DNA of 25,192 nt from Candidatus Hydrothermales bacterium (GTDB lineage Bacteria; Hydrothermota; Hydrothermia; Hydrothermales; JAJRUZ01): the NCBI GenBank assembly GCA_039630575.1, contig JBCNUW010000024.1, forward strand, positions 1-25,192, in the 5' to 3' direction. Shown piece after piece: positions 1-21,373 of the stretch. Position numbers and translations under genes: made by a program. Position 1 is the first letter of the stretch. Every line of letters begins with the position of its first letter. A model generated the notes under the pieces. The model made no database searches, was not told the DNA's origin, and saw only the letters and a list, made by a program, of their open reading frames with translations.

Positions 1-287
1 CAGTACGGTCCCTATCTGCTGTGGGCGTAGGAATCTTGAGGGGGTTCGACCCTAGTACGAGAGGACCGGGGTGGGGAGGCCTCTGGTCTACCAGCTGTCC
101 TGCCCAGGGCATCGCTGGGTAGCCATGCCTCTAAGCGATAACCGCTGAAGGCATCTAAGCGGGAAGCGCGCCCCAAGATTAGGTGCCCCTGAAGGTCCCC
201 GGAAGACTACCGGGTTAATAGGCCGCAGGTGTAAGTCCCGCAAGGGATTGAGCCGAGCGGTCCTAATAGACCGTCCGCCTTCACAAT
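1..287 (+). rRNA. rrl: 23S rRNA, 3' end (partial; position 1 corresponds to about E. coli 2601)
   Basis: Sarcin-ricin loop AGTACGAGAGGA at 54-65, collinear with E. coli 2654-2665. Conserved GCTGAAGGCATCTAAG, GAAGACTAC, GTGTAAG and CTAAT blocks are present. About 61% GC against an AT-rich background. The 3' end is estimated by analogy to E. coli. Confidence 0.97.
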
Positions 288-2590: not shown

Positions 2591-4489
2591 TTATCTTATT
2601 TCAAGGATTTGAACCTCTTTAAATCTTTTAAATAAAGGTCTATATTCCCTTCCACCAGCAACATAAAATTTTGTAAAAAACTCAACAAATTGTAATCTTA
2701 ATCCTTGAATTGTGGGATCAAAGATTCCAAGTAAAAAAGCGAGCATATGAAACAAAAGCATCACAGTTATACCAACTAAAATTGAAGGCAACAAATTAAT
2801 GAATTTGTTTGCAATTACCGCTATTATTGCAGATGAAAGCCCTATTGCCATAAGTCTAGCAAAAGAAAGTATATGACCAAAAGCAGAAAATATCTCTATT
2901 GGTGCTGCTGGCCCATGAAATCTAAAAGATAGAACCATAAAAATTAATAACATCAATAGAAAAATCTGATTAAAAGATGAAGGTATAATACCTAAAGAAG
3001 AAAGAGCAATCATTAAAACACATATAAGACCCATTAACATGGAAAGAACTCCAATAGCATGCTCTTTGTGCCCCAAAACAAAAGCATTGATTATACCAAG
3101 TATTAAACCAAGTATAACCTGGGAAGTTCCAAAAATTATTGCTAATAAAAGATAAGTATTTGCTTCATGCACTCTATGAAAAATAGGCTTAAATCCAAAT
3201 CTTTCAAGAACATCTCCAAACATTTCCATATATAAGATTCCAAAAATAATAGAAAAAATTGACGCAACTACAAAAACATAAGAAACCCTCTTTATTAAAA
3301 AATTATTTTTTAACCTAAAATAAATAAAAGAAAAAAGAAGTAAACCTAAAAATCCATAACCTATGTCACCTAACATAAAACCATAATAAAGTGGAAAAAA
3401 AAGTCCAAGCAAAGGAGTAGGATCATAAGTTCTATAAACAGGTAAAGAAAAAAACTCTATAAATGGCTCAAAATTCTTAAAAAAAGATGAATTTTTAAGC
3501 AATACTGGCACCCTTTTATACTCCTCCTTTTTGGGAATTGACTCTCTAATATAACATTTATGTCTCTTTACTAACTCTCTTAACTTGTCAATCTCCTTCT
3601 CAGGTAAAAATCCTTCAAGATAAAAGAAATACTTAGTAAGATAAACCCCCTTTTCCTTTACACTTAACAAATCCCTTAAATCCTCAAGAATGTAAAAACT
3701 ATTATAAAGGAAACTTATATTCTTCTCAATAAAATCTTTTTTTCTTAATTCGTTTTCTTTTAATTTCTCGGGTATTTCCATAAGTTTTTTCTTTAAAAAT
3801 GAGAGCATTTCTTTAAAAGAAAGCTTTGCTATCTCATGAGGTAAAACCAATTCAGGAAAACCCTCTTTCCATAGTCTTTCCTTTAGTTCCTCTGAAATTG
3901 AAGGTGAATGAGCTATAAGAACAGCTATTTGATTTCCCTTTATTACTCTATGAAAAATTTTTACCTTTTCTCCATAATCTTTCCTAAGAGCCTCCCTTAC
4001 TCTCTCTAATAATATCAGATCCTCTCTTGATAACAGAACCCCTCTTAAATTAAATTCTTCATTTAATTCAATTTCTTTTTTATCTACTAACTCCTCAAAA
4101 GCCTCCAAAATCTTCTTAAACGAAAAATATAAACTTCTTTCTTCCAGTATTTTTCTTTCCTCTTCTTTTAATCTCTGATATTCCTGATAAATTGAATTTA
4201 ATCTTAATATGAGATCCTCTATACTTCCAAACTCAATTTTTTGTGTATCAACTTTTAAAACTAACTCTTCTTTTCTTATTTCATTTATTAAATATATCCC
4301 TCGTTCTATCTTTCTAAGAAGTTCTTTTTCTTTATCATTTAAAGCACTTCTTATCTTTTCACCTTCTTTTAACTCAAAATCACTATCCTCTACGTGTAAA
4401 ACCGAAAGCTCCTGTAATTCAACGAGGAATCTATCCAATTTCTCTATCTCACCAATAATTTCAACCTTTTTCATTTTTAAACTACCCAT
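2591..4489 (-). CDS. atpI: V/A-type ATP synthase subunit I (a)
   Basis: 632 aa with YDPT, GFMLGDIGYG, LSFARLMAIGL (essential Arg) and LRLQFVEFFTKFY motifs. Confidence 0.96.
   Translation of the reverse strand: MGSLKMKKVEIIGEIEKLDRFLVELQELSVLHVEDSDFELKEGEKIRSALNDKEKELLRKIERGIYLINEIRKEELVLKVDTQKIEFGSIEDLILRLNSIYQEYQRLKEEERKILEERSLYFSFKKILEAFEELVDKKEIELNEEFNLRGVLLSREDLILLERVREALRKDYGEKVKIFHRVIKGNQIAVLIAHSPSISEELKERLWKEGFPELVLPHEIAKLSFKEMLSFLKKKLMEIPEKLKENELRKKDFIEKNISFLYNSFYILEDLRDLLSVKEKGVYLTKYFFYLEGFLPEKEIDKLRELVKRHKCYIRESIPKKEEYKRVPVLLKNSSFFKNFEPFIEFFSLPVYRTYDPTPLLGLFFPLYYGFMLGDIGYGFLGLLLFSFIYFRLKNNFLIKRVSYVFVVASIFSIIFGILYMEMFGDVLERFGFKPIFHRVHEANTYLLLAIIFGTSQVILGLILGIINAFVLGHKEHAIGVLSMLMGLICVLMIALSSLGIIPSSFNQIFLLMLLIFMVLSFRFHGPAAPIEIFSAFGHILSFARLMAIGLSSAIIAVIANKFINLLPSILVGITVMLLFHMLAFLLGIFDPTIQGLRLQFVEFFTKFYVAGGREYRPLFKRFKEVQILEIR
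2605..2615 (-). promoter_or_regulatory. T-loop-like hairpin GGTTCAAATCC upstream of atpK (inside the atpI 3' end)
   Basis: Plus strand reads GGATTTGAACC, 23 nt before the atpK ATG. No SD in the spacer. One of five copies placed this way. Confidence 0.6.
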
Positions 4490-4831
4490 TTAAATTTCCC
4501 CCTTTAAAATTATTTTTTCTAATATCCTTAATGCCTCCTCCTTGTAATTGTCAAAATTTAAAATAAGGTCCTGAGCTTTATTTTTTCCCTCCTTAAAAAT
4601 TTTTTCACATTCCTCTTCTATCCTTAAAATTCCACTTTTTATCATTTCTTCTTTTCTCTTATTCATTTCTTCGATAAAATCACGAAGCTCTTTTTTTATC
4701 TTTAATTTTTCTCTTTCAATTAACTCTTTTTTTTCTCTCAATTTTTCTTCTACTAAGGGAAAGTTTTGTTCCTCCTCTTCAAGGAGACAAAAAAGATTTT
4801 CCCTTATTTTAATTTTTTCCTGACTATGCAT
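4490..4831 (-). CDS. Probable V/A-type ATP synthase peripheral stalk subunit G/H
   Basis: 113 aa, highly charged and helical, immediately upstream of subunit I as in Thermus-type operons. The assignment rests mainly on position. Confidence 0.7.
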   Translation of the reverse strand: MHSQEKIKIRENLFCLLEEEEQNFPLVEEKLREKKELIEREKLKIKKELRDFIEEMNKRKEEMIKSGILRIEEECEKIFKEGKNKAQDLILNFDNYKEEALRILEKIILKGEI

Positions 4832-4869
4832 AGAAAATATAAAATTAAATTATAAAGTGGAAATTAATT

Positions 4870-5433
4870 CTAAATCAAAAATAAAGTTACTTTTGTTCCT
4901 CTTTGATATTCTGATTCAACTTTTATTTCAGAACCCATAAATTTTAAAAGTCCTTTTACAATTGATAAGCCAATTCCAAGATGACCTTTAAAGAGGCGAA
5001 AATTTGTTAAAAAAAATGGCGTAAAGATTTTCTCTATCTCTGTTCTTGAAATTCCTATACCTGAGTCAATTATTTCTAAAATAACAAGATCTTTTTTATT
5101 TATTTTTATTTTTATTAATCCTGACCGTGAAATCGCAATTTTTGAATTGTTAACTATTTCCTTTATAACCCTATTTAAATAATTTTTATCAATTTCTAAA
5201 AACAAACTGTCCATCGGTGAAAAAAGGTCAATTTGAAATATGATCCCCTCTTCTTTTTCTCTCTCAACAAATTCTGTTACAAAATCATAAAGATTAATTT
5301 TTCTTTTATTTAATATAATTTTACCATCCATGATGTTTTGTAAAAGCAAAAGTCTTTCCATTTCACCTCTGAGAAAATCACTACTTTCTACACTTATTTT
5401 TCTTAAAAATTCATACATATGAAGTGGTATCAT
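4870..5433 (-). CDS. Histidine kinase-like HATPase_c protein lacking a recognisable H-box
   Basis: N box EIVNNSKIA, G1 DSGIGI, F box IFTPFF, G2 HLGIGLSIVK and terminal ESEYQRGTKVTL. Confidence 0.8.
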   Translation of the reverse strand: MIPLHMYEFLRKISVESSDFLRGEMERLLLLQNIMDGKIILNKRKINLYDFVTEFVEREKEEGIIFQIDLFSPMDSLFLEIDKNYLNRVIKEIVNNSKIAISRSGLIKIKINKKDLVILEIIDSGIGISRTEIEKIFTPFFLTNFRLFKGHLGIGLSIVKGLLKFMGSEIKVESEYQRGTKVTLFLI

Positions 5434-6804
5434 TTATAAGATAATTCTTATTTTATTTCCAATACCTCTTTCTACTTCAATCTGTACATAATATCCAAGA
5501 GTTTTGAATATAATTCCTACAACTGAAAGATCCTCACTTATATCCTGGGGATCTAAAATTAAATTTAAATCGTTATCTGTCATTCCTATACCAGAATCTT
5601 CAATTTGAATCTCTCCGTCTCTGAAATATATACTCATAAATCCCCTTATTCTATTGAACGAAATTAAATATCTAAAAAGATATAGAAAAGCAATTCTTAA
5701 AAGATCTTTATCTCCCTCGCAAATAAACTCTTCCTTTTCAATGTTAATTCTAATTTTTTTTCTCGTAATTTCAAATTCAAGAATACTTAAAGCTTCCCTT
5801 ATTATCTCCACGATATCTAACTTTTGAAGAGGAGTTGTAATATTTTCTATAAGTTCTTCCTTTTTTTTATATTTTAGCAAAGTAGCTTTTACATTTATCA
5901 CAGGTAGCATCCTCTTTGTAAAATTGTAAGAAAATTTAATATTTTTCTTTAAGAAGAAATACAGAGTAAGAGTTGATAAATATTCAAAAAAACTGCTCAT
6001 CTCAGTTTCAATTTCTTTATCTGTGTAAATACCTAAAACTCCTAATTCGTTTTCGATCAATTTAGAGTAAAACAAATGTAAGTCTTTGTTCTTATATCTT
6101 ACCTTATTTAATCCTTTTTTAATCTTATCTCTACATAAATCGTCATAAAAAAATTCATCAAGAAAGATTGATGAAAATAATGTGTAAACTGGTAAAACAT
6201 CGTCTTCAAAAAATAAAAATAAAAAATCAAATTTATCCTTAAGTATTCTTCTTAAAATATAAAATATTATTTCTAACAAATGTTCTTCCCTCTCACAGTT
6301 TATTATTTTAAAAAAGGCTAAATTGAAAAGTTCAGCGTACTTTTGATAAGTGTTTGACTTTTCCTCTGAATTCTTTAAAAGATCTTTATAGAAGAAAACT
6401 AAGGAAAAAAGGGGGTCTCTCTCTAAAATTTTTTTTTCACTTATCTCAAGACTATCAAAAAGTTTATCAATTTCTTCTTTTTTCAAACTCTTTTTAATCA
6501 ATTCTTTTATCTTAATTTTCAATTCATTTTCTCTTCTTCTGGAAAAATAAAAAAAAAGAAAATTCAATAAACTTTCATATTTTTTATCTAATTCTCCTTC
6601 AATAGAAATCTTTAAATCAATTTCATCATCTACTTTTCTAATACTAATGTTTTTAAAAGGAGATATCGTGATTTCGTAACCATTCGTTTTCACCTTTATT
6701 ATAACATTAACAGCTTCCCTCTCAAGAAAGTTCTTGATGCATTGGGCTGCTTCTATCTCATTTTTTAAATTAATACATTTAAGTATCGCCTCCTCAAATT
6801 TCAT
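5434..6804 (-). CDS. Degenerate sensor-kinase-like protein (C-terminal HATPase-like domain)
   Basis: The C-terminal part has GDKDLLRIAFLYL, IEDSGIGM and EVERGIGNKIRI. The N-box Asn residues and the G2 box are degenerate. The N-terminal part is unassigned (possibly GAF-like). Confidence 0.6.
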   Translation of the reverse strand: MKFEEAILKCINLKNEIEAAQCIKNFLEREAVNVIIKVKTNGYEITISPFKNISIRKVDDEIDLKISIEGELDKKYESLLNFLFFYFSRRRENELKIKIKELIKKSLKKEEIDKLFDSLEISEKKILERDPLFSLVFFYKDLLKNSEEKSNTYQKYAELFNLAFFKIINCEREEHLLEIIFYILRRILKDKFDFLFLFFEDDVLPVYTLFSSIFLDEFFYDDLCRDKIKKGLNKVRYKNKDLHLFYSKLIENELGVLGIYTDKEIETEMSSFFEYLSTLTLYFFLKKNIKFSYNFTKRMLPVINVKATLLKYKKKEELIENITTPLQKLDIVEIIREALSILEFEITRKKIRINIEKEEFICEGDKDLLRIAFLYLFRYLISFNRIRGFMSIYFRDGEIQIEDSGIGMTDNDLNLILDPQDISEDLSVVGIIFKTLGYYVQIEVERGIGNKIRIIL

Positions 6805-7633
6805 TTATATTTTTAAAAGTTGACTTATCTATATTAAGCTTTAATATATCTCTTGTTTTTTTCTTTATAAATATCTCATATGTTGAAGGATATCTAACAG
6901 GAATTGTAGAGGGGTCCCTTCCCTCAGAAACAAGTGTAATAATATCTAATAGTTCTTTTAAATAAACCTTTTCTATACTGTAACTCATCAAAGCACCCAT
7001 AAGAGCATGGCTTTTTTCAAAACCGAATACTGGAATATTAATTTTTAAAAGCTCCTCAATGAAGTATCTTGAGGAATTTTCATCTATTGTTAAATCACTT
7101 GGTACAAGTAAAAATAGGTCAATGTTATTTAACTCAGAAAGAGCCTTTTTAACAGCTCTTCCTTGAACAAAAACTATTTTTAAATCAATGTTAAAATTCC
7201 TTGCTGCTCTCCTTAATTCCTCAACATAGTTACTCTGGGAAAATTCATAAGGCAAAATTACGCCCACTTTTTTTACCCATTTCATTAAAGTTGAAATTAT
7301 TGTGAACAAAACAGAGGGTGGCAATTCATACCTTAAACCAGTTCCTGTTATAGGTATTTCATAAACTGGTTTTTTTACATAACCAACTATACAAGGTTTT
7401 TCCCATTTATTTTTTGTATATAACTCTAAAGCCTTGTCTCCGAGTAAAATAACTAAATTATAAATTTCAATTTTGTTCGTAAAATTCTCTGGTTTTGAGA
7501 GAATAACATTATCTTTAATCACTTCTTTTATTTTCTTTAAAACTTCTTCATTCCCTAACCCATCTATTATCAATGTTTCTGCTAAAACTTTACTACAAAG
7601 AGAAAATATGAAAATTATTTCTATCTTTCTCAT
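6794..7633 (-). CDS. ABC_sub_bind-family periplasmic substrate-binding protein
   Basis: Signal-like N-terminus with motifs VILLGDKAL, VKKVGVI, IPVFGF...GALMSY and GRDPSTIPV, typical of PF04392-like proteins. Confidence 0.75.
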   Translation of the reverse strand: MRKIEIIFIFSLCSKVLAETLIIDGLGNEEVLKKIKEVIKDNVILSKPENFTNKIEIYNLVILLGDKALELYTKNKWEKPCIVGYVKKPVYEIPITGTGLRYELPPSVLFTIISTLMKWVKKVGVILPYEFSQSNYVEELRRAARNFNIDLKIVFVQGRAVKKALSELNNIDLFLLVPSDLTIDENSSRYFIEELLKINIPVFGFEKSHALMGALMSYSIEKVYLKELLDIITLVSEGRDPSTIPVRYPSTYEIFIKKKTRDILKLNIDKSTFKNINEI

Positions 7634-7671
7634 AATTAAATTTTATAATAATATAATTAAAACTGCAAATT

Positions 7672-8838
7672 ATGGCTATTTTTACTTTAATTCTCCTTTC
7701 TCAGGCCGAAATCTCCCTTTATAATTATTATTCAAAAAGACTAGTTAATAAACAAATTTTAGATAAGTCCTTGAAATTCTCAATCTGTGTTTTTAAATCC
7801 CTAGATTTTAGCTTGGAAAAAATAACCCAATTTTTTGAAATTTTTTCAAATTCATATATATTTAAAGATTTTTATTCCTTTTCTTTTAATATGAACTCTT
7901 TCAAAACTAGATATGACAGTTTAATTTCAACTAAGCTTTTTTTTAGAAGAAACATAGATAAAATAAATTTTCTTAAAGATTTGAAATTTGCCTATCAGAA
8001 CAATTTTAAAGGCATTTACTCTTACATAAACATCAGTTCTCCAGCATTTTATAATAAGCATAAAGATTCTATTGGCAGATTTTCTTTTTATGACCAATCA
8101 ATTATTAGCTTTCTATATTTAAAGAGCTTAAGAACTGGCTTAGGACTTAAAATGCTTAATAAAAAATTTGAAAGAAATTTATCTCCCTTTATTTTCTTTA
8201 ACTCAGACATCATGGGTATAAATTACTTGATAAATCTTTATATTTTTGATAATAAACTTTTACCATCTTTTAAACTTTTTTACTTTAACGAACTTTTTTT
8301 CTTTATGACAGGTTTTTCAAAAAAAATTGAATTTTTTAACCCTTTAGAAGAGTATAGTTTTCTTTTGTTTAATTTTCCCTTTTTAATAGAAAAGGGGGAA
8401 AGAAATTTTGTTTCTCTTATTTTTTATGAATTCTTTTTAAATATTAAAAGAATTATAATAAAATTTGGTTACAAAAAATTTTTTGATAATCTCTTTGACG
8501 CCCTTATTTTTGAAAATGAAAAGTTTTTAGTAAAGAAAAGAAAAAATTTAGAAGTCACTTCTCTTGAATTTTACTTTTTTAATAAAACCTCTTTTAGGTA
8601 TGAAAACTATAATAAAGAACCGATTTTTCTTTATTTAATTTATAAGATAAACTATAAAAATTTTATTTTTGAACCTAAATTAATTTATATAAATAAAAAC
8701 AACCTTTTTGCTTTTAAATTCAAAACAGCCTATATTTTAAAAAAGAAATTCACCCTTTTTATTCAATATGATTATTTTAGGCCAGAGTCATCTATACTTA
8801 AAAGGGAGGTAAAATTTGGAATCCAAAAAAGATTTTAA
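7672..8838 (+). CDS. Hypothetical protein, possible outer-membrane beta-barrel
   Basis: 388-aa ORF with a short hydrophobic N-terminus, aromatic-rich alternating segments and C-terminal Phe (KFGIQKRF). No family recognised. Confidence 0.5.
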   Translation: MAIFTLILLSQAEISLYNYYSKRLVNKQILDKSLKFSICVFKSLDFSLEKITQFFEIFSNSYIFKDFYSFSFNMNSFKTRYDSLISTKLFFRRNIDKINFLKDLKFAYQNNFKGIYSYINISSPAFYNKHKDSIGRFSFYDQSIISFLYLKSLRTGLGLKMLNKKFERNLSPFIFFNSDIMGINYLINLYIFDNKLLPSFKLFYFNELFFFMTGFSKKIEFFNPLEEYSFLLFNFPFLIEKGERNFVSLIFYEFFLNIKRIIIKFGYKKFFDNLFDALIFENEKFLVKKRKNLEVTSLEFYFFNKTSFRYENYNKEPIFLYLIYKINYKNFIFEPKLIYINKNNLFAFKFKTAYILKKKFTLFIQYDYFRPESSILKREVKFGIQKRF

Positions 8839-9715
8839 ATCAGGATATGTCTCAATAGTGGGAAGACCTAATGTAGGTAAATCTACCCTTCTAAATTCTT
8901 TAATAGGAGAATTTATCTCAATAATAACTCCTAAACCACAAACAACAAGAGTTAATATTTTAGGAATAAAGACAACTCCTAATTATCAGATATGTTTTTA
9001 TGATACTCCTGGAATGCTTAAAAAAGTAAGGTATGAACTTCATAAGACAATGGTTGAAGAGATAAAAAAGGTAATTGAAGACTCAGATCTTGTAATTTTG
9101 ATGGTTGAACCTATTCCTGAAATTGGAGAAGTGGAAGAAAAGTTGATTGAGCTTATTAAAAATTCTAAAAAAGAAACAATACTTGTTATAAACAAAATAG
9201 ATACCGTAAGCAAGAATGAAATTTTGCCTATAATAGATCTTTACAGTAAGTTAAACCTCTTTAAGGAAATTATCCCTATATCTGCCTCAAAGGGTGATGG
9301 TGTTGATATTCTAGAAAGAAAGGTTGTTGATTTACTTCCCTACGGAGAAATGCTTTACGAGGGTGAGGATCTCTCAGATAAGCCCCTACGCTTTTTTATT
9401 GCTGAAATTATAAGAGAAAAAATTTTTAACCTTTATGGAGAAGAAATTCCCTATTCCTCTGCAGTTGAAGTTGAGGAATGGAAAGAGGAGGAAAATAAGG
9501 TTTACATAAAGGCTATAATATATGTTGAAAAGGATTCGCAAAAAGGTATTATAATTGGAAAACAAGGCGAAAAGATTAAAAAAATTGGCACTTTGGCAAG
9601 AATAGATATAGAAAAAAAAATAAATAAAAAAGTTTTTTTAGATCTTTGGGTTAAAGTGAAAGAAAACTGGAGAAGTGATTTGAATTTCTTGAAAAAAATA
9701 GGTTATGTAAGTTAA
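8816..9715 (+). CDS. era: GTPase Era
   Basis: GRPNVGKSTL, PQTTR, DTPG, NKID, EEIPY and KH-domain IIIGKQG motifs. TTG start with SD GGAGGT at 8805-8810. Confidence 0.97.
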   Translation: MESKKDFKSGYVSIVGRPNVGKSTLLNSLIGEFISIITPKPQTTRVNILGIKTTPNYQICFYDTPGMLKKVRYELHKTMVEEIKKVIEDSDLVILMVEPIPEIGEVEEKLIELIKNSKKETILVINKIDTVSKNEILPIIDLYSKLNLFKEIIPISASKGDGVDILERKVVDLLPYGEMLYEGEDLSDKPLRFFIAEIIREKIFNLYGEEIPYSSAVEVEEWKEEENKVYIKAIIYVEKDSQKGIIIGKQGEKIKKIGTLARIDIEKKINKKVFLDLWVKVKENWRSDLNFLKKIGYVS

Positions 9716-9742
9716 ATTTTAAATATGGGAGGTGTTAGAGAG

Positions 9743-10273
9743 ATGGTTATATTTATACCACTTTTTATTTTTGGAGGTGTTTCAAAGAAGGGAACAAAGT
9801 CAGAGTATAAAGAAATTAACTTAAAATCATCAGAATTTGGATATGGTGATATGATTCCGGTCAAGTATACTTGTGATGGTGAAGATATATCACCACCTTT
9901 AGAATGGACTGATGTACCAGAGGGAACTAAAAGTTTTGTTTTAATTTGTGATGACCCTGATGCTCCAATGGGTACATGGGATCATTGGATTCTTTTTAAT
10001 ATACCATCGGATGTTAAGAAGTTAGAAGCCGGGATAAAACCTCTTGAAAAACTTGAAAACGGAGCAATTCATGGTAAAAACAGTTGGGGAAAACTAGGTT
10101 ATGGTGGCCCTTGTCCCCCCTCTGGAACACACAGATACTTCTTTAAGTTATATGCTCTCGATACTTCTCTTGATTTAAAACCAGGAGCAACAAAGAAGGA
10201 AGTATTAAAAAAGATGGAGGGACACATAATCGGTTATGGTGAATTGATGGGAAAATATAAAAGATCAAGATAG
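9743..10273 (+). CDS. YbhB/YbcL family PEBP (Raf kinase inhibitor-like) protein
   Basis: YTCDGEDISPPL, DPDAP, HW and GYGGPCPP.GTHRY motifs. Start moved from 9725 to ATG 9743 because SD GGAGGT lies at 9728-9733. Confidence 0.93.
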   Translation: MVIFIPLFIFGGVSKKGTKSEYKEINLKSSEFGYGDMIPVKYTCDGEDISPPLEWTDVPEGTKSFVLICDDPDAPMGTWDHWILFNIPSDVKKLEAGIKPLEKLENGAIHGKNSWGKLGYGGPCPPSGTHRYFFKLYALDTSLDLKPGATKKEVLKKMEGHIIGYGELMGKYKRSR

Positions 10274-10279
10274 ATAAAA

Positions 10280-11182: not shown

Positions 11183-11441
11183 TTTTTTTCCTCTCTAAAT
11201 TTAAAATCTTTACATATTTATCAAACTCAACTTTTTTTAAATTTTTTTCAGGGACTTCTAAAATTTCGATTTCAATATTTCTGTCTATCAATTCAATTTT
11301 AATTTTATCTTTCTTTTTAACCTTATAAGAGGCTTTAACCTTTTTTTCATTTACATAGATTAATCCTCTTTCGCAAGCAATTTTAGCATATTTTCTGCTT
11401 TTTATAATATTAAAAAACTTTATAAATTTATCAATCCTCAA
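11175..11441 (-). CDS. S4-domain RNA-binding protein, RqcP/YabO (Hsp15)-like
   Basis: 88 aa reading MRIDKF...IIKSRKYAK..CERG.I.VN...KAS..VK..D.I. TTG start. Confidence 0.85.
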   Translation of the reverse strand: MRIDKFIKFFNIIKSRKYAKIACERGLIYVNEKKVKASYKVKKKDKIKIELIDRNIEIEILEVPEKNLKKVEFDKYVKILNLERKKIA

Positions 11442-11447
11442 ATTAAC

Positions 11448-12707: not shown

Positions 12708-12709
12708 CT

Positions 12710-13888: not shown

Positions 13889-13909
13889 TTTTATTTTTCT
13901 AATTACTTT

Positions 13910-13920
13910 GGATTTGAACC
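13910..13920 (-). promoter_or_regulatory. T-loop-like hairpin GGTTCAAATCC in the thiolase 5' UTR
   Basis: Minus strand reads TTTA-GG-TTCAAAT-CC-AAA, 21 nt before the ATG, with no SD. A TAAAAT -10-like hexamer lies just upstream (13938-13933). Confidence 0.65.
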
Positions 13921-13951
13921 TAAATAAAAATTATTTTAATATATTTTATTC

Positions 13952-15223
13952 ATGAAAGTAAAAGTAAGGTTTTATGAAGAATTGAATGATTTTTTACCAG
14001 TCCATTTAAGAAAAAGAGAATTTGAACTTTTTCTTGAAGAGGGTAAAAAAGTAAAAGATATACTTGAAATTTTTAAAATTAAAAGTGAGTATGTACATCT
14101 TGTTCTTGTAAATGGTGAAAATTCCTTCTTGGAAAGAAAGTTAAAGGAAAATGATAGAGTTTCCTTTTTTCCTATATTTGAGACTATTGATATAACTCCA
14201 ATAAAAATAATAAACCAAAAAAGAGTAAAGGAAAGTATTTACGAGAAAAAAAACGGTTACTCAATATGTCTTGTCTGTGAGAGAAGATGTAAATTAAAAA
14301 AAGGTGATTTGGGATTCTGTAAAACAAGAATCAATGTGGATGGAAAAATTTACACATTAATTTATGGTGATATATCTTCTCTCAGTATAAATCCCATCGA
14401 AAAAAAACCATTTTTTCATTTTTATCCTGGTACTAAAGCACTCACTGTGGGTTCTTTTTCCTGTAATTTTTTATGCCCCTGGTGTCAAAATTTTGAGATA
14501 AGTAAGACACCAGAAAATATAGGAAAGGGAGAGTATATATCACCAAAAAGATTTATTGAACTAATGAAGAAATACAAGTGTGCAGGGACAAGTATTTCCT
14601 TTAATGAACCAACTCTTTTACTTGAGTATTCTGTTGATGTTTTTAAACTTGCTAAAAGTGAAAATTATTATAATACCTTTGTTTCAAATGGTTATATGAC
14701 AGAAGAAGCACTCAATAGATTAATAGATGCAGGTCTCGATGCCATAAATTATGATCTAAAAGGAAATAGAGAATTTGTTAAAAAGTTTTGTGGAGCCGAT
14801 GTAGAAAAAGTTTGGAGAAATATAAAGATTTCAAAGAATAAAGGTTTATGGGTTGAAATAATAACTCTGGTCATTGAGGGCTTTAATGATAAAGAAGAAG
14901 ATATAAGGGGTATTGCAAAAAGAATAAAGGAAGAAGTTGGAGATGATATCCCATATCATTTAACTAGATACTACCCATCATATAAATTTAGTTCACCTCC
15001 CACCTCTGTTAAAAGACTTGAGATTTTAAGAGATGTTGCTTTAAATGAAGGATTACAATATGTTTATATTGGGAATGTCCCTTTTCATAAATATGAAAAT
15101 ACCTATTGTCATAATTGTAAAGTTTTACTTATAAAAAGAAATATTTTTGATGTAGAGGAAAATAAAGTAATTAAGGGAAAATGTTTTAAATGCGGTGTAA
15201 AAATTCCTGGAGTATTCATTTAA
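13952..15223 (+). CDS. amrS: AmmeMemoRadiSam system radical SAM enzyme with N-terminal Ub-Mut7C-like ubiquitin domain
   Basis: CLVCERRC...GFC, PIEKKPFFHFYPG, CNFLCPWCQN (CxxxCxxC), FNEP, YVYIGNV...NTYCHNC and CFKCG motifs. Residues 1 to about 85 read RFYEELNDFLP...VKD...V.LVLVNGE...DRVSFFP.FE.IDI. Confidence 0.92.
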   Translation: MKVKVRFYEELNDFLPVHLRKREFELFLEEGKKVKDILEIFKIKSEYVHLVLVNGENSFLERKLKENDRVSFFPIFETIDITPIKIINQKRVKESIYEKKNGYSICLVCERRCKLKKGDLGFCKTRINVDGKIYTLIYGDISSLSINPIEKKPFFHFYPGTKALTVGSFSCNFLCPWCQNFEISKTPENIGKGEYISPKRFIELMKKYKCAGTSISFNEPTLLLEYSVDVFKLAKSENYYNTFVSNGYMTEEALNRLIDAGLDAINYDLKGNREFVKKFCGADVEKVWRNIKISKNKGLWVEIITLVIEGFNDKEEDIRGIAKRIKEEVGDDIPYHLTRYYPSYKFSSPPTSVKRLEILRDVALNEGLQYVYIGNVPFHKYENTYCHNCKVLLIKRNIFDVEENKVIKGKCFKCGVKIPGVFI

Positions 15224-15234
15224 CTAAAATAACT

Positions 15235-15264
15235 TTGAAAATTAAAGATAAATTTCAATAAAAT
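15235..15264 (+). promoter_or_regulatory. Putative sigma70 promoter of pruA
   Basis: TTGAAA (15235-15240), an 18-nt spacer, then TAAAAT (15259-15264). The AT-rich background lowers specificity. Confidence 0.45.
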
Positions 15265-15274
15265 TAAACTTAAT

Positions 15275-15285
15275 GGTTCAATTCC
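15275..15285 (+). promoter_or_regulatory. T-loop-like hairpin GGTTCAATTCC in the pruA 5' UTR
   Basis: 33 nt before the ATG and a few nt after the predicted transcription start. This leader also carries SD GGAGG. Confidence 0.55.
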
Positions 15286-15318
15286 TTCTTCTAACTTGTA
15301 AAATTGGAGGGAAATTAA

Positions 15319-16881
15319 ATGGCTTTTAATGTTTCTACATTTAGAAATGAACCTTTTACAGATTTTTCTGATCCATTAAATAAAAAAGCTTTTGAAGAAG
15401 CCTTAAAAAAAGTGGAGTCTGAACTTGGAAGAAAGTATCCGCTTATAATTAAAGGTAAAGAAGTTTATACAAATGAAACTTTTAAAAGTATTAATCCATC
15501 AAAATACGATGAAATTATAGGCGAATTTTCAGTTGCAAAGAGAGAGCATATAGAGGAGGCTATTAATGTTTCATGGGAAACCTTTGAAGAATGGAAAAAA
15601 ATAAATGCAAAGGAAAGGGCTGCAATTTTACTTAGAGCAGCCTACTTATTGAGAAAAAGAAAACATGAATTTTCTGCTACAATGGTTCTTGAAGTTGGGA
15701 AAAATTGGGCTGAAGCAGATGCTGATACTGCTGAAGCGATAGATTATTTGGAATTCTACGCAAGGGAAGCTGTTAGGTTTGGAGAACTTCAAAGCCTTAC
15801 ACCTTTTGAAGGTGAAATTCCGGAATACTTTTACATTCCCCTTGGAGTAGGTGTTATTATTCCACCATGGAACTTTCCTTTAGCTATCACATTAGGAATG
15901 ACAACTGCAAGTATAGTGACAGGGAATTGTGCAATTTTAAAGCCATCTTCTGATGCTCCTTTAATTGCCTATAAATTTGTCAAACTGATGCATGAAGCAG
16001 GATTACCAGAAGGGGTTTTAAATCTTCTTACAGGATCTGGATCTAAAGTGGGTGATCCTCTTGTTTCCCACCCCAAAACAAGATTTGTAGCTTTTACAGG
16101 ATCAAGAGAGGTTGGGTGCCATATTTACGAACTTGCAGCAAAAGTAAGTCAGGGACAAAAATGGTTAAAAAGAGTTATAGCTGAAATGGGTGGAAAGAAT
16201 GCAATAATAATTGATAAAGAGGCAAACTTTGAGGATGCTGTAAAATGGGTAATAGTCTCTGCTTATGGCTATCAAGGACAAAAATGTTCAGCTTGCTCGA
16301 GACTTATTGTTCACAAAGATATTTATGATAAATTTATTGAAATGCTTTTAGAAGAGGTAAAGAAAATCAAAATTGGACCTGCCAGAGAAAACTACTTCAT
16401 GGGGCCAGTAATTAATGCTTCATCAGAGAATAAGATATTAAGTTATATAGAAACTGGAAAAAAAGAGGGTAAATTGATTTTTGGAGGTAAAAAAGCACAG
16501 ATTGAAGGTGGTTATTTTATTGAACCAACAGTATTCATAGATATTGATGAAAATGCTACTATAGCTCAAGAGGAGATTTTTGGTCCAGTACTTTCTGTAA
16601 TAAAAGCAAAAGATTTTGATGATGCCATAAGAATTGCAAATAACTCAGACTATGGTCTTACAGGAGCTGTTTTCTCATTTAATAGGAAAAATATTATAAA
16701 GGCAAAAGAAGATTTCCATGTTGGTAATCTTTACATTAATAGGAAATGCACGGGTGCTTTAGTAGATGTTCATCCTTTTGGAGGATTTAATATGTCAGGA
16801 ACTGATTCAAAAGCAGGTGGAAGAGACTATCTACTTTTATTCCTTCAAGGTAAAAGTGTTTCAGAGAGAATATCCTTTTAA
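15319..16881 (+). CDS. pruA: L-glutamate gamma-semialdehyde (P5C) dehydrogenase
   Basis: FRNEPFTDF, IPPWNFPLAI, FTGS, AEMGGKN, GQKCSACSR, EEIFGP and GTDSKAGG motifs. Confidence 0.96.
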   Translation: MAFNVSTFRNEPFTDFSDPLNKKAFEEALKKVESELGRKYPLIIKGKEVYTNETFKSINPSKYDEIIGEFSVAKREHIEEAINVSWETFEEWKKINAKERAAILLRAAYLLRKRKHEFSATMVLEVGKNWAEADADTAEAIDYLEFYAREAVRFGELQSLTPFEGEIPEYFYIPLGVGVIIPPWNFPLAITLGMTTASIVTGNCAILKPSSDAPLIAYKFVKLMHEAGLPEGVLNLLTGSGSKVGDPLVSHPKTRFVAFTGSREVGCHIYELAAKVSQGQKWLKRVIAEMGGKNAIIIDKEANFEDAVKWVIVSAYGYQGQKCSACSRLIVHKDIYDKFIEMLLEEVKKIKIGPARENYFMGPVINASSENKILSYIETGKKEGKLIFGGKKAQIEGGYFIEPTVFIDIDENATIAQEEIFGPVLSVIKAKDFDDAIRIANNSDYGLTGAVFSFNRKNIIKAKEDFHVGNLYINRKCTGALVDVHPFGGFNMSGTDSKAGGRDYLLLFLQGKSVSERISF

Positions 16882-16896
16882 TTCTATTTAAAGTTT

Positions 16897-18795
16897 GTGA
16901 AAGAGAAAATTTTTAAAAAAGAAGAAATAGTTAAAAATAAAGGAAAAGAGATAAAAGAACTTTTAAATGATGATAATTTATTTCTTGTAGCTTTAGTTGA
17001 TGGAAAGCCAAAAGATTTGACCTACAAAATAAAGGGCAGTGAGGAAGAGATAAGATTGTTAGACTTTGATCATCCCCTTGGTAGGGAAACTTTCTGGCAT
17101 ACTTCATCTCATGTAATGGCTCATGCAGTAAAGGAACTTTTTCCTTTTGCAAAGCTTACTATAGGACCACCTATAGAAAGTGGTTTTCATTACGATTTTT
17201 ATATGGGTGAAAAAACCTTTACTCCTTCAGATCTTGAGAGAATTGAAGAAAAAGCAAAGGAAATAATTAAAAGAGATTTAGAAATAAAAAGGATAGAAAT
17301 AAAAAAAGAAAAAGCAATAGAAATTTTTAATGAAAGAAAAGAGGATTTTAAGGTTGAACTTTTGAAAGAAATAGAAGATGAATATGTAAGTTGTTATGAG
17401 CAGGGAGATTTTATTGATCTTTGCACCGGACCTCATCTTATAAGAACGGGTCTGATAGGGGCATTTAAAATTATTTCATCATCATCCTCTTATTGGAGAA
17501 AAGATGAAAAGGGACCTGTGCTTCAAAGAATATATGGAATAGCATTTCCAAATGAAAATGATTTAAAAAGTTATTTGGAAAAGTTAGAGGAAGCAAAAAA
17601 AAGAGACCACAGGAAACTCGGAAAGGAACTTTCCTTATTTCAACTTTCTGAAGATGTAGGGTCAGGTTTAATTTTATGGCTACCAAAAGGTGCTTTTATA
17701 AGAAGAGAGATAGAGAATTTTTTATACCAGGAACATGTTAAAAGGGGTTATCAACCTGTTTATACACCTCATGTTGGTAAAAAAAGATTATGGGAGACTT
17801 CTGGGCATCTTGAGTTTTATAGAGAGAACATGTATCCTGAGATGACTTTAGAGGATGGTGAGGGCTATTTTATAAAACCCATGAATTGTCCTTTTCACAT
17901 TCAGGTTTACAAAAATGAGCTTAGAAGTTTTAGAGATTTACCCCTTAGATTTTTTGAATTTGGAACAGTTTATCGTTTTGAGAGAAGTGGAGTTTTGCAT
18001 GGATTGACAAGGGTTAGAGGATTTACCCAGGATGATGCTCATATTTTCTGTACTCCTGAGCAGGTTGAAAAAGAAATAAAGGGTGTTATAGATTTTGCTC
18101 TTTTTGTTCTTTCTAAGTTTGGTTTTAAAAATTATAGAGTTTTTGTATCTACAAGACCTAAAGATTTTGTTGGAACAGAAGAGATGTGGGAAAAGGCAAC
18201 AGGTTCACTTATTTTAGCGGCAAAGGATTGTTCTTTAAATTTTGAAATTGCAGAAGGTGAAGGTGCCTTTTATGGTCCTAAAATAGATATCTTGATAAAA
18301 GATGCAATTGGGAGAGAATGGCAATGCACTACTATTCAGTTTGATTTTAATTTACCTGAAAGGTTTGGAATAACTTTTAGGGATAGTGATGGAAAGGAAA
18401 AAAAACCTTATATGATACATAGGGCTCTTTTAGGTTCAATGGAGAGGTTTTTTGGAATTTTAATTGAACATTATAGTGGTGATTTTCCAATTTGGCTTTT
18501 ACCTGAACAGATAAGGATTTTACCATTAAGTGATAAATTTTTTAAATATGCAGAAAATGTGAGAGAATTTGTAAACAAGAGTGGGTTAAGGTGTAAAATA
18601 GATTATGATAATGAAACTCTTAGTTATAAAATTAGAAAAGCAGAGCTTGAAAAAATACCATATATTATTATTGTTGGAAAGAAAGAAGAGGAGCAGAACT
18701 CTGTTTCAGTTAGGAAACATAAGGAAGGTGATTTGGGTTCAATGACCGTAGAGGAATTAGTAAATAAAATAAAAAAGGAAATTGATATCAATTAG
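16897..18795 (+). CDS. thrS: Threonine--tRNA ligase
   Basis: HTSSHVMAHAV, DLCTGPH, RDHRKLG, KPMNCP, RVRGFTQDDAH and HRALLGS motifs. GTG start. Confidence 0.98.
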   Translation: MKEKIFKKEEIVKNKGKEIKELLNDDNLFLVALVDGKPKDLTYKIKGSEEEIRLLDFDHPLGRETFWHTSSHVMAHAVKELFPFAKLTIGPPIESGFHYDFYMGEKTFTPSDLERIEEKAKEIIKRDLEIKRIEIKKEKAIEIFNERKEDFKVELLKEIEDEYVSCYEQGDFIDLCTGPHLIRTGLIGAFKIISSSSSYWRKDEKGPVLQRIYGIAFPNENDLKSYLEKLEEAKKRDHRKLGKELSLFQLSEDVGSGLILWLPKGAFIRREIENFLYQEHVKRGYQPVYTPHVGKKRLWETSGHLEFYRENMYPEMTLEDGEGYFIKPMNCPFHIQVYKNELRSFRDLPLRFFEFGTVYRFERSGVLHGLTRVRGFTQDDAHIFCTPEQVEKEIKGVIDFALFVLSKFGFKNYRVFVSTRPKDFVGTEEMWEKATGSLILAAKDCSLNFEIAEGEGAFYGPKIDILIKDAIGREWQCTTIQFDFNLPERFGITFRDSDGKEKKPYMIHRALLGSMERFFGILIEHYSGDFPIWLLPEQIRILPLSDKFFKYAENVREFVNKSGLRCKIDYDNETLSYKIRKAELEKIPYIIIVGKKEEEQNSVSVRKHKEGDLGSMTVEELVNKIKKEIDIN

Positions 18796-18856
18796 GTTCC
18801 ATATCCCCTATTTTTTATATTTTATCTTTTGATTAAATTCAAGAAATTTTTCATTA

Positions 18857-18867
18857 GGTTCAATTCC
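18857..18867 (+). promoter_or_regulatory. T-loop-like hairpin GGTTCAATTCC in the infC leader
   Basis: Reads ATTA-GG-TTCAATT-CC-AAT, 22 nt before the ATG, with no SD. Confidence 0.65.
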
Positions 18868-18889
18868 AATAAAAAAATTCGAATTATTT

Positions 18890-19438
18890 ATGGGAAGAAA
18901 ATGGTATCCAAGAGGTCCAGTTGCAAGGGATAAAGAGCCCTATCGTGTTAATGAAAACATAAAAGCAAAAGAAGTAAAAGTGGTAGATGAGAATAATAAA
19001 TTTTTGGGCGTGATGCCTTTGAAGGAAGCTCTTGAGCTTGCCTATGATAGAGGTTATGATCTTGTTGAAATAGTCCCGACCGATAATCCACCCCTTTGCA
19101 AAATTCTTGATTATGGAAAATTTAAATATGAAATGAAAAAAAAGAAAAAACATACTAAAACTGCTGAGGAAAAGGAAATATCCTTTAGACCCTCTACAAG
19201 TGAACATGATCTTGAATTAAAAATTAAAAAATTAAATGAATTTATTAAAGGTGGACATAAAGTAAGAGTTAGACTTTTTTTTAGAGGAAGAGAAGTAATT
19301 TTTATTGATACACAAGGAAGAGAGATAATGGAAAAGTTTATTGATAAAGTTAAAGAATTTGCTGAACCAGAAGGTGAAATTAAAAAGGCCGGAGATAAAC
19401 AACTTTTTGTTATAATGAAACCAAAAAAGAAAAAGTAA
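18890..19438 (+). CDS. infC: Translation initiation factor IF-3
   Basis: RVNENI, DLVEI.P...PPLCKILDYGKFKYE, KEI.FRP and FFRGRE motifs. Follows thrS. Confidence 0.96.
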   Translation: MGRKWYPRGPVARDKEPYRVNENIKAKEVKVVDENNKFLGVMPLKEALELAYDRGYDLVEIVPTDNPPLCKILDYGKFKYEMKKKKKHTKTAEEKEISFRPSTSEHDLELKIKKLNEFIKGGHKVRVRLFFRGREVIFIDTQGREIMEKFIDKVKEFAEPEGEIKKAGDKQLFVIMKPKKKK

Positions 19439-19941
19439 TGAGAAATTATCTTTTGAAATTTGTGAAACTTTTTTCTTTTTTTGAAAGATACGGAGTGATC
19501 TATGCTATTTTTGGTGATTCTGCAATGTACATCTGGGGTATAAGGAAGAAGTTGAGGTATATAGAAATAATTATTGATTTTGATGAAGAAAATATAAAAA
19601 GATTTTTAAAGCTTATGCTTAACATGGGTATGAAAATAAAGGGCAACATAAAGTATAAGTTTTTACCAGATATTCTTAAAAAGAGAGATAAAATAGAAGT
19701 GGATTATCTTATATTTTATCATAGAAGAATTTTACCATGGAGAATTAAGTTATTTTTGAAAGAAAATTTGTGTAGGTATAAAGTTGTAGAAAAAAAATTA
19801 GAGGATACAAAGATTTATGTATTGTCCTCTGAAGATGTTTTTAATTTAAAGATGAGGGATATAAATTTAAGATCTCTTCAAGATATACATTTTCTTAGGG
19901 CAAAGCTTAAAGATGTTTTTGAGAGGGCTTTTTCAAAGTAA
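19438..19941 (+). CDS. Degenerate nucleotidyltransferase-fold protein (DUF6036/MNT-like)
   Basis: YAIFGDSAMYIWG resembles the GG.A...hG motif, and LSSEDVFNLK...LQDIHFL resembles the EDL..hK...DL.Dh helix. The DxD position reads YIE. Coupled to infC by TAATG. Confidence 0.55.
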   Translation: MRNYLLKFVKLFSFFERYGVIYAIFGDSAMYIWGIRKKLRYIEIIIDFDEENIKRFLKLMLNMGMKIKGNIKYKFLPDILKKRDKIEVDYLIFYHRRILPWRIKLFLKENLCRYKVVEKKLEDTKIYVLSSEDVFNLKMRDINLRSLQDIHFLRAKLKDVFERAFSK

Positions 19942-21330
19942 TTTGCTAAAAAATTTTTTATAAAGTTCCTTAAAGGATTTGTTTGTAAAAAGATTTCTAT
20001 TTAAAACTTTTGCAAAATCTTTGATATTTTCGTAAAGAGAAAATCCTATTTTAGGATTTCCAAAGGGATAGATAGATTTGTTAGAAAGTAAAGGATCTTC
20101 TCTTCTATCAAAATAATTATTAAAAGGTAATGGTGAAAATTGAGCTGGATAAATTTTTACCTTATTTACGAAAAGATACTCATAAGTTTTCATTATTTCA
20201 TCTATATCGTCATCTATGGTTCCAATTAACACGTAGGCACCTAACTCTTGGCTAAAACCAGCTTTTTTAAGATTTTTTATAGCATTATCAAAGTCTTTAA
20301 TTTTAAGTTTTTCTGACCAACTTTTTTTTAATTTTTCTTCATTTATTGTTTCGAGTCCTATTCTTATTGTTTTAAAATTAGCCTTTTTTAAAAGATTAGC
20401 CATTTCCTGGTCAATGTAACGCGCATGAATGGCATTTGGGGTATGAACCCTTATATTTAATTTTTTTTCAATAAATTTTTTTAAAAATTCTTTAAATTTT
20501 TCCTTTGGGTACAAAAGGGCATCGTCGTAAAAGGCAAGATCTTTTGCTTCCTTTAATCTATGAATTTTTTCTATTTCCTCAATTACGCTTTCATCTTTTA
20601 ATGAAATAAACTCCGGAAATAAAATATTAGAAGCACAATAAACGCATTTAAATGGACAGCCTAAAGATCTTATGACTGCAAAGTGTTTTAAAATCGGATA
20701 CTCAAGGTAAAACTCAAAAGAAACTGCTTTACCGTTTAAGTATTTTTCTTTATCAATTTTTTTACAAGTTAATCTCTCAATTTTTTCTAAAATATTTGTT
20801 ATATTTATATCTGGAATAAGAAAAAGATCATTAAAATTTTTCTCAGCATGTTCCTTACAAAAAAACACATATCTACCTCCCAGTACATATATAGAATTAG
20901 GATAAAAATCTTTTAAAAAGTCAACTGTCTTTCTTATTCCAGGATACCAATAGGTCATTCCACTTGTTATAAAAATAAAATCAAAACCTTTTTGTTTTTT
21001 TAAATAATCCTTTAAATTTTCTTCATTCCAACCATAAATTTTATACTTCCTTTTTATGTTCTCATAAATTTTTGGTTTAACTATCTCTCTTGATGGAAAT
21101 TTTCCAGTTGAAAAACTTCTGTCCCTTATTTCTTTTAGCTCTTTTTTACTCAGTTTCTCTACGAAATGGGGATTGTGTCTGTCCATAAAATCAACTAAAA
21201 AAACTTCAAAACCCTCTCTCTTTAGAATACTTCCTAAAATTAAAAGACCAAGAGGTTTTATCCAAAAATCATATAGTGAAAAATCTGTTACCCATGGATT
21301 TACTAACAGAACTTTTACTTTATTATTCAC
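19933..21330 (-). CDS. Cobalamin-binding-domain radical SAM protein
   Basis: LLVNPW..DFSLYDFWIKPLGL, TSGMTYWYPG and LGG.Y (B12-binding region), plus GCPFKCVYC, FYDDAL, TPNAIH and IGLET. GTG start. Confidence 0.88.
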   Translation of the reverse strand: MNNKVKVLLVNPWVTDFSLYDFWIKPLGLLILGSILKREGFEVFLVDFMDRHNPHFVEKLSKKELKEIRDRSFSTGKFPSREIVKPKIYENIKRKYKIYGWNEENLKDYLKKQKGFDFIFITSGMTYWYPGIRKTVDFLKDFYPNSIYVLGGRYVFFCKEHAEKNFNDLFLIPDINITNILEKIERLTCKKIDKEKYLNGKAVSFEFYLEYPILKHFAVIRSLGCPFKCVYCASNILFPEFISLKDESVIEEIEKIHRLKEAKDLAFYDDALLYPKEKFKEFLKKFIEKKLNIRVHTPNAIHARYIDQEMANLLKKANFKTIRIGLETINEEKLKKSWSEKLKIKDFDNAIKNLKKAGFSQELGAYVLIGTIDDDIDEIMKTYEYLFVNKVKIYPAQFSPLPFNNYFDRREDPLLSNKSIYPFGNPKIGFSLYENIKDFAKVLNRNLFTNKSFKELYKKFFSKLL

Positions 21331-21360
21331 TTTTCTTAAAATTATATTCTAAATTTATTA

Positions 21361-21373
21361 GAGTTCAAATCTC
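21361..21373 (+). promoter_or_regulatory. T-loop-like hairpin GAGTTCAAATCTC in the TolB-like gene leader
   Basis: Reads TTA-GAG-TTCAAAT-CTC-AA. The stem differs from the other copies but keeps pairing. The loop-closing C is 22 nt before ATG 21393. Confidence 0.6.

Follow-up and report, generated by a model that had tools for sequence, protein, structure and literature searches.

A nine-nucleotide motif, GTTCRANTC, which reproduces the loop pattern of the tRNA T-arm, recurs ahead of the start codons of unrelated genes in the stretch of DNA analysed here (the window), a 25,192-nt contig from a Candidatus Hydrothermales bacterium. The window is contig C17 of a 94.7%-complete draft genome (G000) of 1.886 Mb in 95 contigs with 30.3% GC, and across this genome the motif is a recurrent, strand-specific element placed relative to start codons. 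This copy of a T-loop, lying ~22 nt before the start codons of housekeeping genes, could represent a signal for the start of protein synthesis that has not been described before. We hold with about even confidence that it acts as RNA, as a transcribed cis-acting element taking the place of the Shine–Dalgarno (SD) site in translation initiation.

Occurrence and position of the motif

GTTCRANTC has six matches in the window against 1.16 expected, a number reached in none of 100 dinucleotide shuffles. Five of them precede, in the sense orientation, atpK, a thiolase gene (thl), a pruA-like aldehyde dehydrogenase gene, infC and a gene for a TolB-like PD40 protein (Table 1). A first-pass annotation of this DNA had reported the same five copies with correct coordinates and strands, and its distances of 25, 23, 35, 24 and 22 nt to the ATG are inclusive counts of the gaps tabulated here. 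Its remark that the 35-nt outlier alone carries GGAGG was likewise borne out, as this sequence occurs only in the pruA leader and the other four leaders have no SD. The atpK copy, which it had placed in an intergenic leader, sits instead in the coding end of atpI, within the last codons before the stop codon at 2591–2593. The sixth match, GTTCAAATC at 24108–24116 (−), had also been noticed as antisense in neuB; it has G/T flanks and no downstream start codon, and was set outside the element family as a chance match.

The same pattern was then read against a gene set of 47 tRNA/tmRNA genes (ARAGORN) and 1664 genes based on open reading frames (ORFs), called with a simple custom codon-score caller whose starts are approximate. 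Genome-wide there are 195 matches, 46 in tRNA T-arms and 149 elsewhere. Among the latter, 87 lie on the sense strand 15–40 nt ahead of a start codon that opens an ORF of at least 50 amino acids (aa), a criterion that only 14.8% of random genome positions satisfy (binomial p = 2e-34). The peak in strand and distance that the first-pass annotation expected of a genome scan is therefore present. When ORFs of at least 60 aa and a range of 10–45 nt were considered, 83 matches qualified, every one of them at 18–40 nt. The other 62 non-tRNA matches are mostly within coding sequence, on both strands and without GG/CC flanks. Thirteen of the 87 copies are inside the 3′ end of an upstream ORF on the same strand, as in atpI–atpK, and their spacing to the start codon is unchanged; the element is thus not bound to mRNA 5′ ends. 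The extended 11-mer GGTTCAAWTCC occurs 95 times in the genome (22 of these in tRNA/tmRNA genes) and 0–1 times when read backwards. A relaxed pattern gave 486 matches, 177 of them near starts, which is a noisy set; we estimate ~130–140 true copies and retain 87 as the firm count.

The expansion of the motif is confined to one family. We scanned 272 genomes of the phylum for GGTTCAAWTCC, of which 6 belong to this family (f1; two genera) and 266 do not. The 11-mer was found 67–149 times in each of the six f1 genomes, whereas sister-family (f2) genomes had 22–29 copies and no other genome of the phylum had more than 31, so that the expansion is present in 6/6 f1 genomes and 0/266 others, although the six are related and their counts are not independent. 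In 1.195 Mb of a sister-family genome (G006) taken through the same pipeline as G000, 6/48 matches were before starts, which is background. In alignments of orthologous leaders, the hairpin and a −10 box are conserved while the spacer diverges, and copies are kept across the two genera. The infC hairpin, for example, is present in all five f1 genomes with a match and in an f1-like contig of bin G010. That bin (f2, 67% complete; loci L005, L019, L031 and L046) and bin G003 (f1, 8% contamination; L024) hold both f1-like and f2-like gene copies; they are probably mixed bins, and their motif counts need care.

Pfam names 69 of the 87 downstream proteins, which are mutually unrelated and typical of abundant products. 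The translation genes among them encode EF-Tu, EF-G, IF3, RRF and the ribosomal proteins S1, S12, S15, S21, L31 and L32. Others encode an RpoD-type sigma factor, FtsZ, DnaN, ACP, a cold-shock protein (Csp), GAPDH, malate and isocitrate dehydrogenases, PPDK, beta-oxidation enzymes and cytochromes.

Anatomy of the loop and stem

The anatomy of the element was derived from the 87 copies, a set that excludes tRNAs; with tRNA T-arms included, their GC-rich stems mimic 5-bp covariation. The loops are TTCAAAT (38), TTCAATT (31), TTCAAGT (6), TTCGATT (4), TTCAACT (4), TTCGAAT (3) and TTCGACT (1). The search pattern itself fixes G53, C61 and T60 (T-arm numbering), and hence the G:C closing pair. When single positions were relaxed, in counts that include some tRNAs, positions 54, 55 and 58 tolerated no change and position 56 few changes, position 57 followed the order A>G>T, position 59 accepted any base and position 60 followed T>C>G. 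As far as sequence can tell, these positional constraints are the T-loop pattern, a 7-nt loop with U54, U55, C56, R57 and A58 closed by G53:C61. The freedom at positions 59 and 60 is also seen among orthologues of the thiolase hairpin, which is kept in 5/5 aligned f1 genomes with AT, AC, CC or TT at these positions. An anticodon-loop mimic (CAA anticodon) was considered and rejected, as the equivalent of position 37 is not restricted to purines and the positions that vary correspond to 59/60 of a T-loop.

The motif shares with the tRNA T-arm (part of RF00005) the 7-nt UUCRANU loop, the G:C closure, invariant U54, U55 and A58, a nearly invariant C56 and free positions 59 and 60, and its commonest loop, TTCAAAT, is also the commonest in the tRNAs of the genome (20/47). 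It differs in having 2–3 supported base pairs rather than 5, in its AU-rich arms, in its location in mRNA leaders and in the lack of a cloverleaf or acceptor stem. The loops also differ in their preferences, with T at position 59 in 35/87 motif copies versus 3/47 tRNAs, and TTCAATT in 31/87 mRNA copies versus 2/47 tRNAs. ARAGORN found no tRNA gene in the window, and no cloverleaf or acceptor stem accompanies the copies there. A cmscan of the window against Rfam 15 (E <= 1) returned only large-subunit (LSU) rRNA at 1–287, in keeping with the first-pass expectation that no family would match the element, although very short motifs are hard for such models.

Conservation is limited to GGTTCAAWTCC, with information content of about zero beyond the 11-mer (in a logo set that included some tRNAs) and diverging flanks in orthologues. 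The second pair, beside the closing G:C, is G:C in 79 of the 87 copies, A:T in 5, and T:A, G:T and A:C in one each; the A:T co-occurrence compares with 0.41 expected (Fisher p ~1e-6). The third pair is formed in 55/87 copies versus 39.9 in shuffles, and none of 5000 shuffles reached 55. No signal was found for pairs 4–8 (38, 40, 34, 34 and 25 of 87 paired versus 34–40 in shuffles), the values for pairs 4 and 5 being 40.3 and 37.6 in shuffles, so that the 5-bp stem of a T-arm is not supported. As only two flanking pairs are supported beyond the closing pair, the element would be a 2–3 bp stem on a 7-nt loop and not a full T-arm. Its arms are 50% GC versus 89% in the genome's own tRNAs. Among orthologues of the TolB-like gene, the stem is GAG/CTC in genus g1 versus AGG/CCT in G005, which amounts to two compensatory pair changes.

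The covariation of the flanks as base pairs favours RNA over a DNA operator, as the first-pass annotation had argued. Its observation that the flanks vary while pairing is kept holds for the second and third pairs, but the pairing that it drew further out (TTT/AAA and the like, beyond 3 bp) is unsupported genome-wide. Similarly, its description of a T-arm mimic is right for the loop signature, but the stem is of ~3 bp and is not the 5-bp T-stem. A further sequence in the window, GGTTCCATATCC at 18795–18806 (+), shares bases with the stop codon of thrS and lies ~50 nt upstream of the true infC hairpin. It resembles the T-arm motif but with a loop of 8 nt, and may be either a degenerate copy or a chance match.

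Spacing, Shine–Dalgarno sites and promoter boxes

The distance between the motif and the start codon depends on whether an SD is present. In the 66 of 87 leaders without GGAG or GAGG, the spacing has a median of 22 nt (interquartile range 20–24) and 60/66 copies lie at 18–26 nt. In the 21 leaders with an SD, the median is 28 nt and the range 22–40 nt (Mann–Whitney p = 1.8e-7); here the distance from hairpin to SD is variable at 11–25 nt, and that from SD to ATG is a normal 5–10 nt. The motif itself is not placed as an SD site, lying 18–31 nt from the start rather than 5–10 nt.

SD sites were also compared between families. At each of the five window genes, the f1 genomes keep the hairpin where the sister family and outgroups lack one and carry AAGGAGG-type sites, which indicates that the hairpin is the derived state. 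Among 476 orthologue pairs of G000 and G006 with coincident starts, G006 has an SD in 33/44 partners of hairpin genes versus 171/432 others (p = 8.6e-6). A few tRNA-adjacent rows persist among the 28 strict rows of this test and dilute the swap; in a by-eye reading of the 24 non-tRNA strict pairs, ~21–22 G006 partners have an SD. Conversely, f1 orthologues that have a strong SD carry a degenerate loop, TTCCACT at atpK (G001 and G004) and TTGAAT at pruA (G005). In non-hairpin orthologues, G000 seems to use the SD less than the sister family (111/432 versus 171/432, with crude start calls). The C-terminus of atpI (window 2591–2640, −) is several codons longer in f1 than in f2, and the f1 extension carries the hairpin, where f2 embeds an SD in the last atpI codons.

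The 16S rRNA was compared in two f1 and two f2 genomes (that of G000 itself is unassembled). The anti-SD tail is intact and identical in all four, and the complement of the loop (ATTTGAA, AATTGAA or TTGAA) was not found in their mature 16S. The two f1 sequences differ from the two f2 sequences at 66 fixed positions in 1683 columns, with no obvious insertion. In the leaders of the f1 16S genes (L077 and L079; G001 and G005), TTGAA, the complement of the loop core, lies ~25 nt before a conserved GTTTGATC and is not in the two f2 leaders; this is probably chance.

Promoter-like boxes are found upstream of the motif. TANAAT boxes peak with their last base 9–20 nt upstream of G53 (39 in these 12 positions versus ~2–3 per 3-nt bin elsewhere), 36/87 copies have TANAAT 8–23 nt upstream, and TTGA-type −35 boxes peak ~17 nt further upstream of the TANAAT boxes. 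Between motif and ATG, TANAAT shows no enrichment (14 in 87 spacers, which is background). In the window, four of the hairpins (thl, pruA, infC and TolB-like) have predicted TAAAAT or TTAAAT boxes 11–20 nt upstream, and these are conserved in orthologues (Table 1). These sigma-70-type −10 boxes suggest that the motif is probably transcribed, near the mRNA 5′ end; assuming a start ~7 nt past the −10 box, the hairpin would begin 0–13 nt from the 5′ end. The motif thus probably lies within the transcript, and the concern raised in the first-pass annotation, that it might precede transcription starts, is lessened by the placement of the predicted −10 and −35 boxes upstream of it. A role as a −35 box or as a sigma-54 or extracytoplasmic-function (ECF) sigma promoter was rejected on spacing and on the lack of a downstream −10 box, the peak being upstream instead.

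Table 1 Candidate T-loop mini-hairpins and predicted promoter boxes in the window
Feature	Sequence	Position	Strand	9-mer	Downstream gene (start)	Gap from loop-closing C to ATG (nt)	Remarks
T-loop mini-hairpin	GGTTCAAATCC	2605..2615	−	2606–2614	atpK, V-type ATPase c/K subunit (2581)	24	no SD
T-loop mini-hairpin	GGTTCAAATCC	13910..13920	−	13911–13919	thiolase gene (13888)	22	no SD
T-loop mini-hairpin	GGTTCAATTCC	15275..15285	+	15276–15284	pruA-like aldehyde dehydrogenase (15319)	34	SD GGAGGG at 15306–15311
T-loop mini-hairpin	GGTTCAATTCC	18857..18867	+	18858–18866	infC, IF3 (18890)	23	no SD
T-loop mini-hairpin	GAG-TTCAAAT-CTC	21361..21373	+	21363–21371	TolB-like PD40 protein (21393)	21	no SD; second stem pair is an A:U variant
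Inferred −10 box	TAAAAT	13933..13938	−		thiolase gene		ends 13 nt before G53; TATTAAAATA conserved in f1 orthologues
Inferred −10 box	TAAAAT	15259..15264	+		pruA-like aldehyde dehydrogenase		conserved in f1 orthologues
Possible −35 box	TTGAAA	15235–15240	+		pruA-like aldehyde dehydrogenase		conserved in f1 orthologues
Inferred −10 box	TAAAAT	21337..21342	+		TolB-like PD40 protein		20 nt before G53; TTTTCTTAAAAT invariant in 5 f1 orthologues

TANAAT boxes were also counted close to start codons in general. Among 482 orthologue pairs of the two genomes, such a box ends 4–10 nt before the start codon in 65 genes of G000 and 50 of G006, with 21 in both, which suggests frequent leaderless mRNAs in both families.

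Possible roles of the element

In the mechanism that we propose, a minimal hairpin of 2–3 bp would close a 7-nt UUCAAWU loop with the T-loop signature U54, U55, C56, A57, A58, N59 and U60. Many mRNAs would carry it a few nucleotides from their 5′ end, and some copies would lie inside the end of the preceding cistron, with an A/U-rich spacer setting the start codon ~22 nt downstream in most copies. The hairpin would take over the role of the SD, recruiting or positioning the ribosome on abundant housekeeping messages, and its T-loop form may be recognised by a component whose usual target is the T-arm or elbow of tRNA, either a part of the ribosome or a T-arm-binding protein. An action on initiation is suggested by the AUG-tied spacing and its relaxation in the presence of an SD, by the evolutionary SD swap and by the copies at internal cistrons. 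More tentatively, we suggest that the ribosome or an initiation-associated factor reads the mRNA-borne T-loop, as the L1 stalk, RNase P or T-boxes read the tRNA elbow, and thereby sets the start ~22 nt downstream.

Several observations weigh against a role in initiation. Neither TruB, TrmFO, a GCD14/TrmI-like protein, S1 nor S21 has an f1-specific copy or fusion, each being single-copy in both families (no genome-wide search for f1-specific genes was made), and the TruB open frame is of similar length in f1 and f2. Twenty-one of the 87 copies coexist with an SD. Within G000, an SD is present in 9/44 hairpin genes versus 111/432 others, a difference that is not significant with crude start calls; the anticorrelation with the SD that the first-pass annotation had proposed to look for is not apparent within the genome on this count. 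In addition, 84 genes with an SD in G006 have neither SD nor hairpin in G000, indicating that the hairpin is not the sole alternative to the SD; several of these genes look leaderless. The predicted free energy of the 17-mer has a median of −1.5 kcal/mol at 37 °C and 0.0 at 65 °C, and the hairpin is predicted to form at 65 °C in only 11/87 copies. By these predictions a 2–3 bp element cannot be stable alone in a thermophile, and it would require a partner to stay folded.

The accepted explanations of how bacteria choose a start site are SD pairing, leaderless AUGs at the 5′ end and A/U-rich leaders of loose definition. Recognition of mRNA through a discrete structured signal that copies part of a tRNA would be a new mechanism, and the signal described here, at a fixed distance from the AUG, would replace a strong SD on the most expressed genes of a whole family. 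If the proposal is true, T-loop reading would be a third general bacterial mode of start-site choice beside SD pairing and leaderless initiation. It would also have evolved recently enough for the SD-using sister family to allow comparison, the six genomes with the element and the sister genomes with an SD at the same genes forming a natural contrast.

The alternative that survives best, which we nevertheless consider rather unlikely, is that the hairpin is a substrate or landing site for T-arm enzymes (TruB, TrmFO or TrmI) or another T-arm binder. Such a site would mark, modify or protect the 5′ part of abundant mRNAs, for stability or quality control, without direct start-codon selection. 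U54, U55 and A58 of the tRNA T-loop are modified residues, and they are exactly the invariant residues of the motif. Genes for TruB, TrmFO and a GCD14/TrmI-like enzyme are present in the genome, and the estimated distance of 0–13 nt from the 5′ end would suit a 5′ protective element. Furthermore, GUUCNANNC in a short stem-loop is the known recognition code of TruB-family enzymes, with E. coli TruB modifying a 3-bp GUUCNANNC stem-loop in vitro at ~0.3 of the tRNA rate and TRUB1 needing at least 2 bp of stem (PMC13492117). In sequence and pairing, the motif agrees with this code, as it would present a GUUCNANNC loop on a stem of at least 2–3 bp. It also shares with the mRNA targets of TRUB1, Pus4 and TruB a sequence-plus-short-stem code in which 2–3 bp are enough in vitro or in reporter assays (PMC13492117). 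These targets are, however, scattered in eukaryotic mRNAs and not fixed relative to the start, whereas the motif has ~90–130 sites per small genome at a fixed leader position. Modification or protection by T-arm enzymes leaves unexplained the tight 18–26 nt AUG spacing in SD-less leaders and its relaxation with an SD, as well as the reciprocal SD swap in orthologues. It also fits poorly with the 13/87 copies inside upstream cistrons, with the occurrence of the same enzymes in the sister family, which has no element, and with a 2–3 bp stem, which would be a poor nuclease block. If it were true, tRNA-modifying enzymes would act on the leaders of about a hundred mRNAs, for which bacteria likewise offer no precedent.

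We regard as unlikely a DNA element, bound as an operator or close to the promoter by a transcription factor or sigma-associated factor that is specific to the family and co-regulates housekeeping genes. In favour of it, predicted −10 boxes lie immediately upstream of the motif, which places it where operators are classically found, the genes concerned resemble a growth-rate regulon, the lineage restriction is as expected of a new regulator, and the stem is too short for a convincing free hairpin. The probable position within the transcript, the strict strand specificity and the covariation together argue against a promoter or operator role, since the orientation is strictly that of the sense strand and a change of the flanks from G:C to A:T as a pair is not expected from a protein that reads DNA. 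Moreover, the spacing is set relative to the start codon and changes with the presence of an SD, some copies are in upstream ORF ends within operons such as atpI–atpK, and the motif is not a −35 box, as no −10 enrichment follows it downstream.

Cleavage of the motif by RNase P or RNase Z, as a tRNA-like processing signal that punctuates polycistronic mRNAs, is very improbable. Both enzymes use the T-arm for recognition, the motif resembles a T-arm and some copies are between cistrons, but there is no acceptor-stem-like pairing and no signal beyond the third pair. The minihelix of ~12 bp, in which acceptor and T-stem are coaxial, is accordingly lacking, ARAGORN finds no tRNA-like gene and Rfam no match in the window, and most copies directly follow predicted promoters. 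Chance, tRNA-gene remnants or a small mobile repeat are effectively refuted: the commonest T-arm core among the tRNAs of the genome has the same 11-mer (TTCAAAT in 20/47), but this origin is opposed by the positional bias (p = 2e-34), by the near absence of the reversed 11-mer (0–1 versus 95), by the lack of conservation outside the 11-mer, with neither the wider similarity nor the terminal repeats of a miniature inverted-repeat transposable element or dispersed repeat, and by the conservation of orthologous copies across two genera.

The proposed initiation signal can also be set beside known leader elements. Like an SD site, it occurs in the leaders of genes whose relatives have AAGGAGG, it is placed relative to the start, and it serves both first and internal cistrons; unlike one, it has no complementarity to the 16S 3′ tail, lies 18–26 nt from the start and not 5–10 nt, and has a hairpin signature where the SD is a linear pairing site. 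Leader RNAs that mimic or engage part of a tRNA, and in this way control translation or transcription, include the E. coli thrS operator and the T-boxes. These systems exert gene-specific feedback, thrS by mimicking the anticodon arm and the T-box by binding whole tRNA, whereas the motif is a generic T-loop copy before dozens of unrelated genes. Expression is raised without an SD by A/U-rich S1 sites, the T7 gene 10 epsilon and the ompA 5′ hairpin, all of them leader elements that lie upstream of the ribosome footprint. We know of no such enhancer or 5′ stem-loop with the signature of a T-loop or with a similarly fixed spacing to the AUG, and 5′ stabilising hairpins are long and stable, unlike the motif. 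In full-text literature, searches with the motif as DNA and RNA and with T-loop, tRNA-mimic and leader terms gave no description of the element among the matches listed (subscription-only literature being outside their scope), in agreement with the first-pass annotation, which knew of no such element; the papers containing the DNA 11-mer, among the matches listed, concern tRNAs. Term look-ups in WOR-3 genome papers likewise gave no description of it. An isolate of WOR-3 has been described (PMC12285271).

The motif also bears on gene calling, as gene finders trained on SD sites will mis-call starts in f1 genomes. The TolB-like gene is an example; besides ATG 21393, which agrees with the genome-wide spacing between motif and start, it has in-frame starts at ATG 21381, 9 nt past the motif, and at GTG 21276, which gives the maximal ORF.

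Elsewhere in the window, five ORFs of 113–456 aa have no Pfam family at E <= 1e-5: 4490–4831 (−), 5434–6804 (−), 7672–8838 (+), 19438–19941 (+) and 24719–25192 (+). The rRNA match at 1–287 (+) is the 3′ end of a 23S rRNA gene (positions 2627–2925 of Rfam LSU_rRNA_bacteria), cut by the start of the contig.

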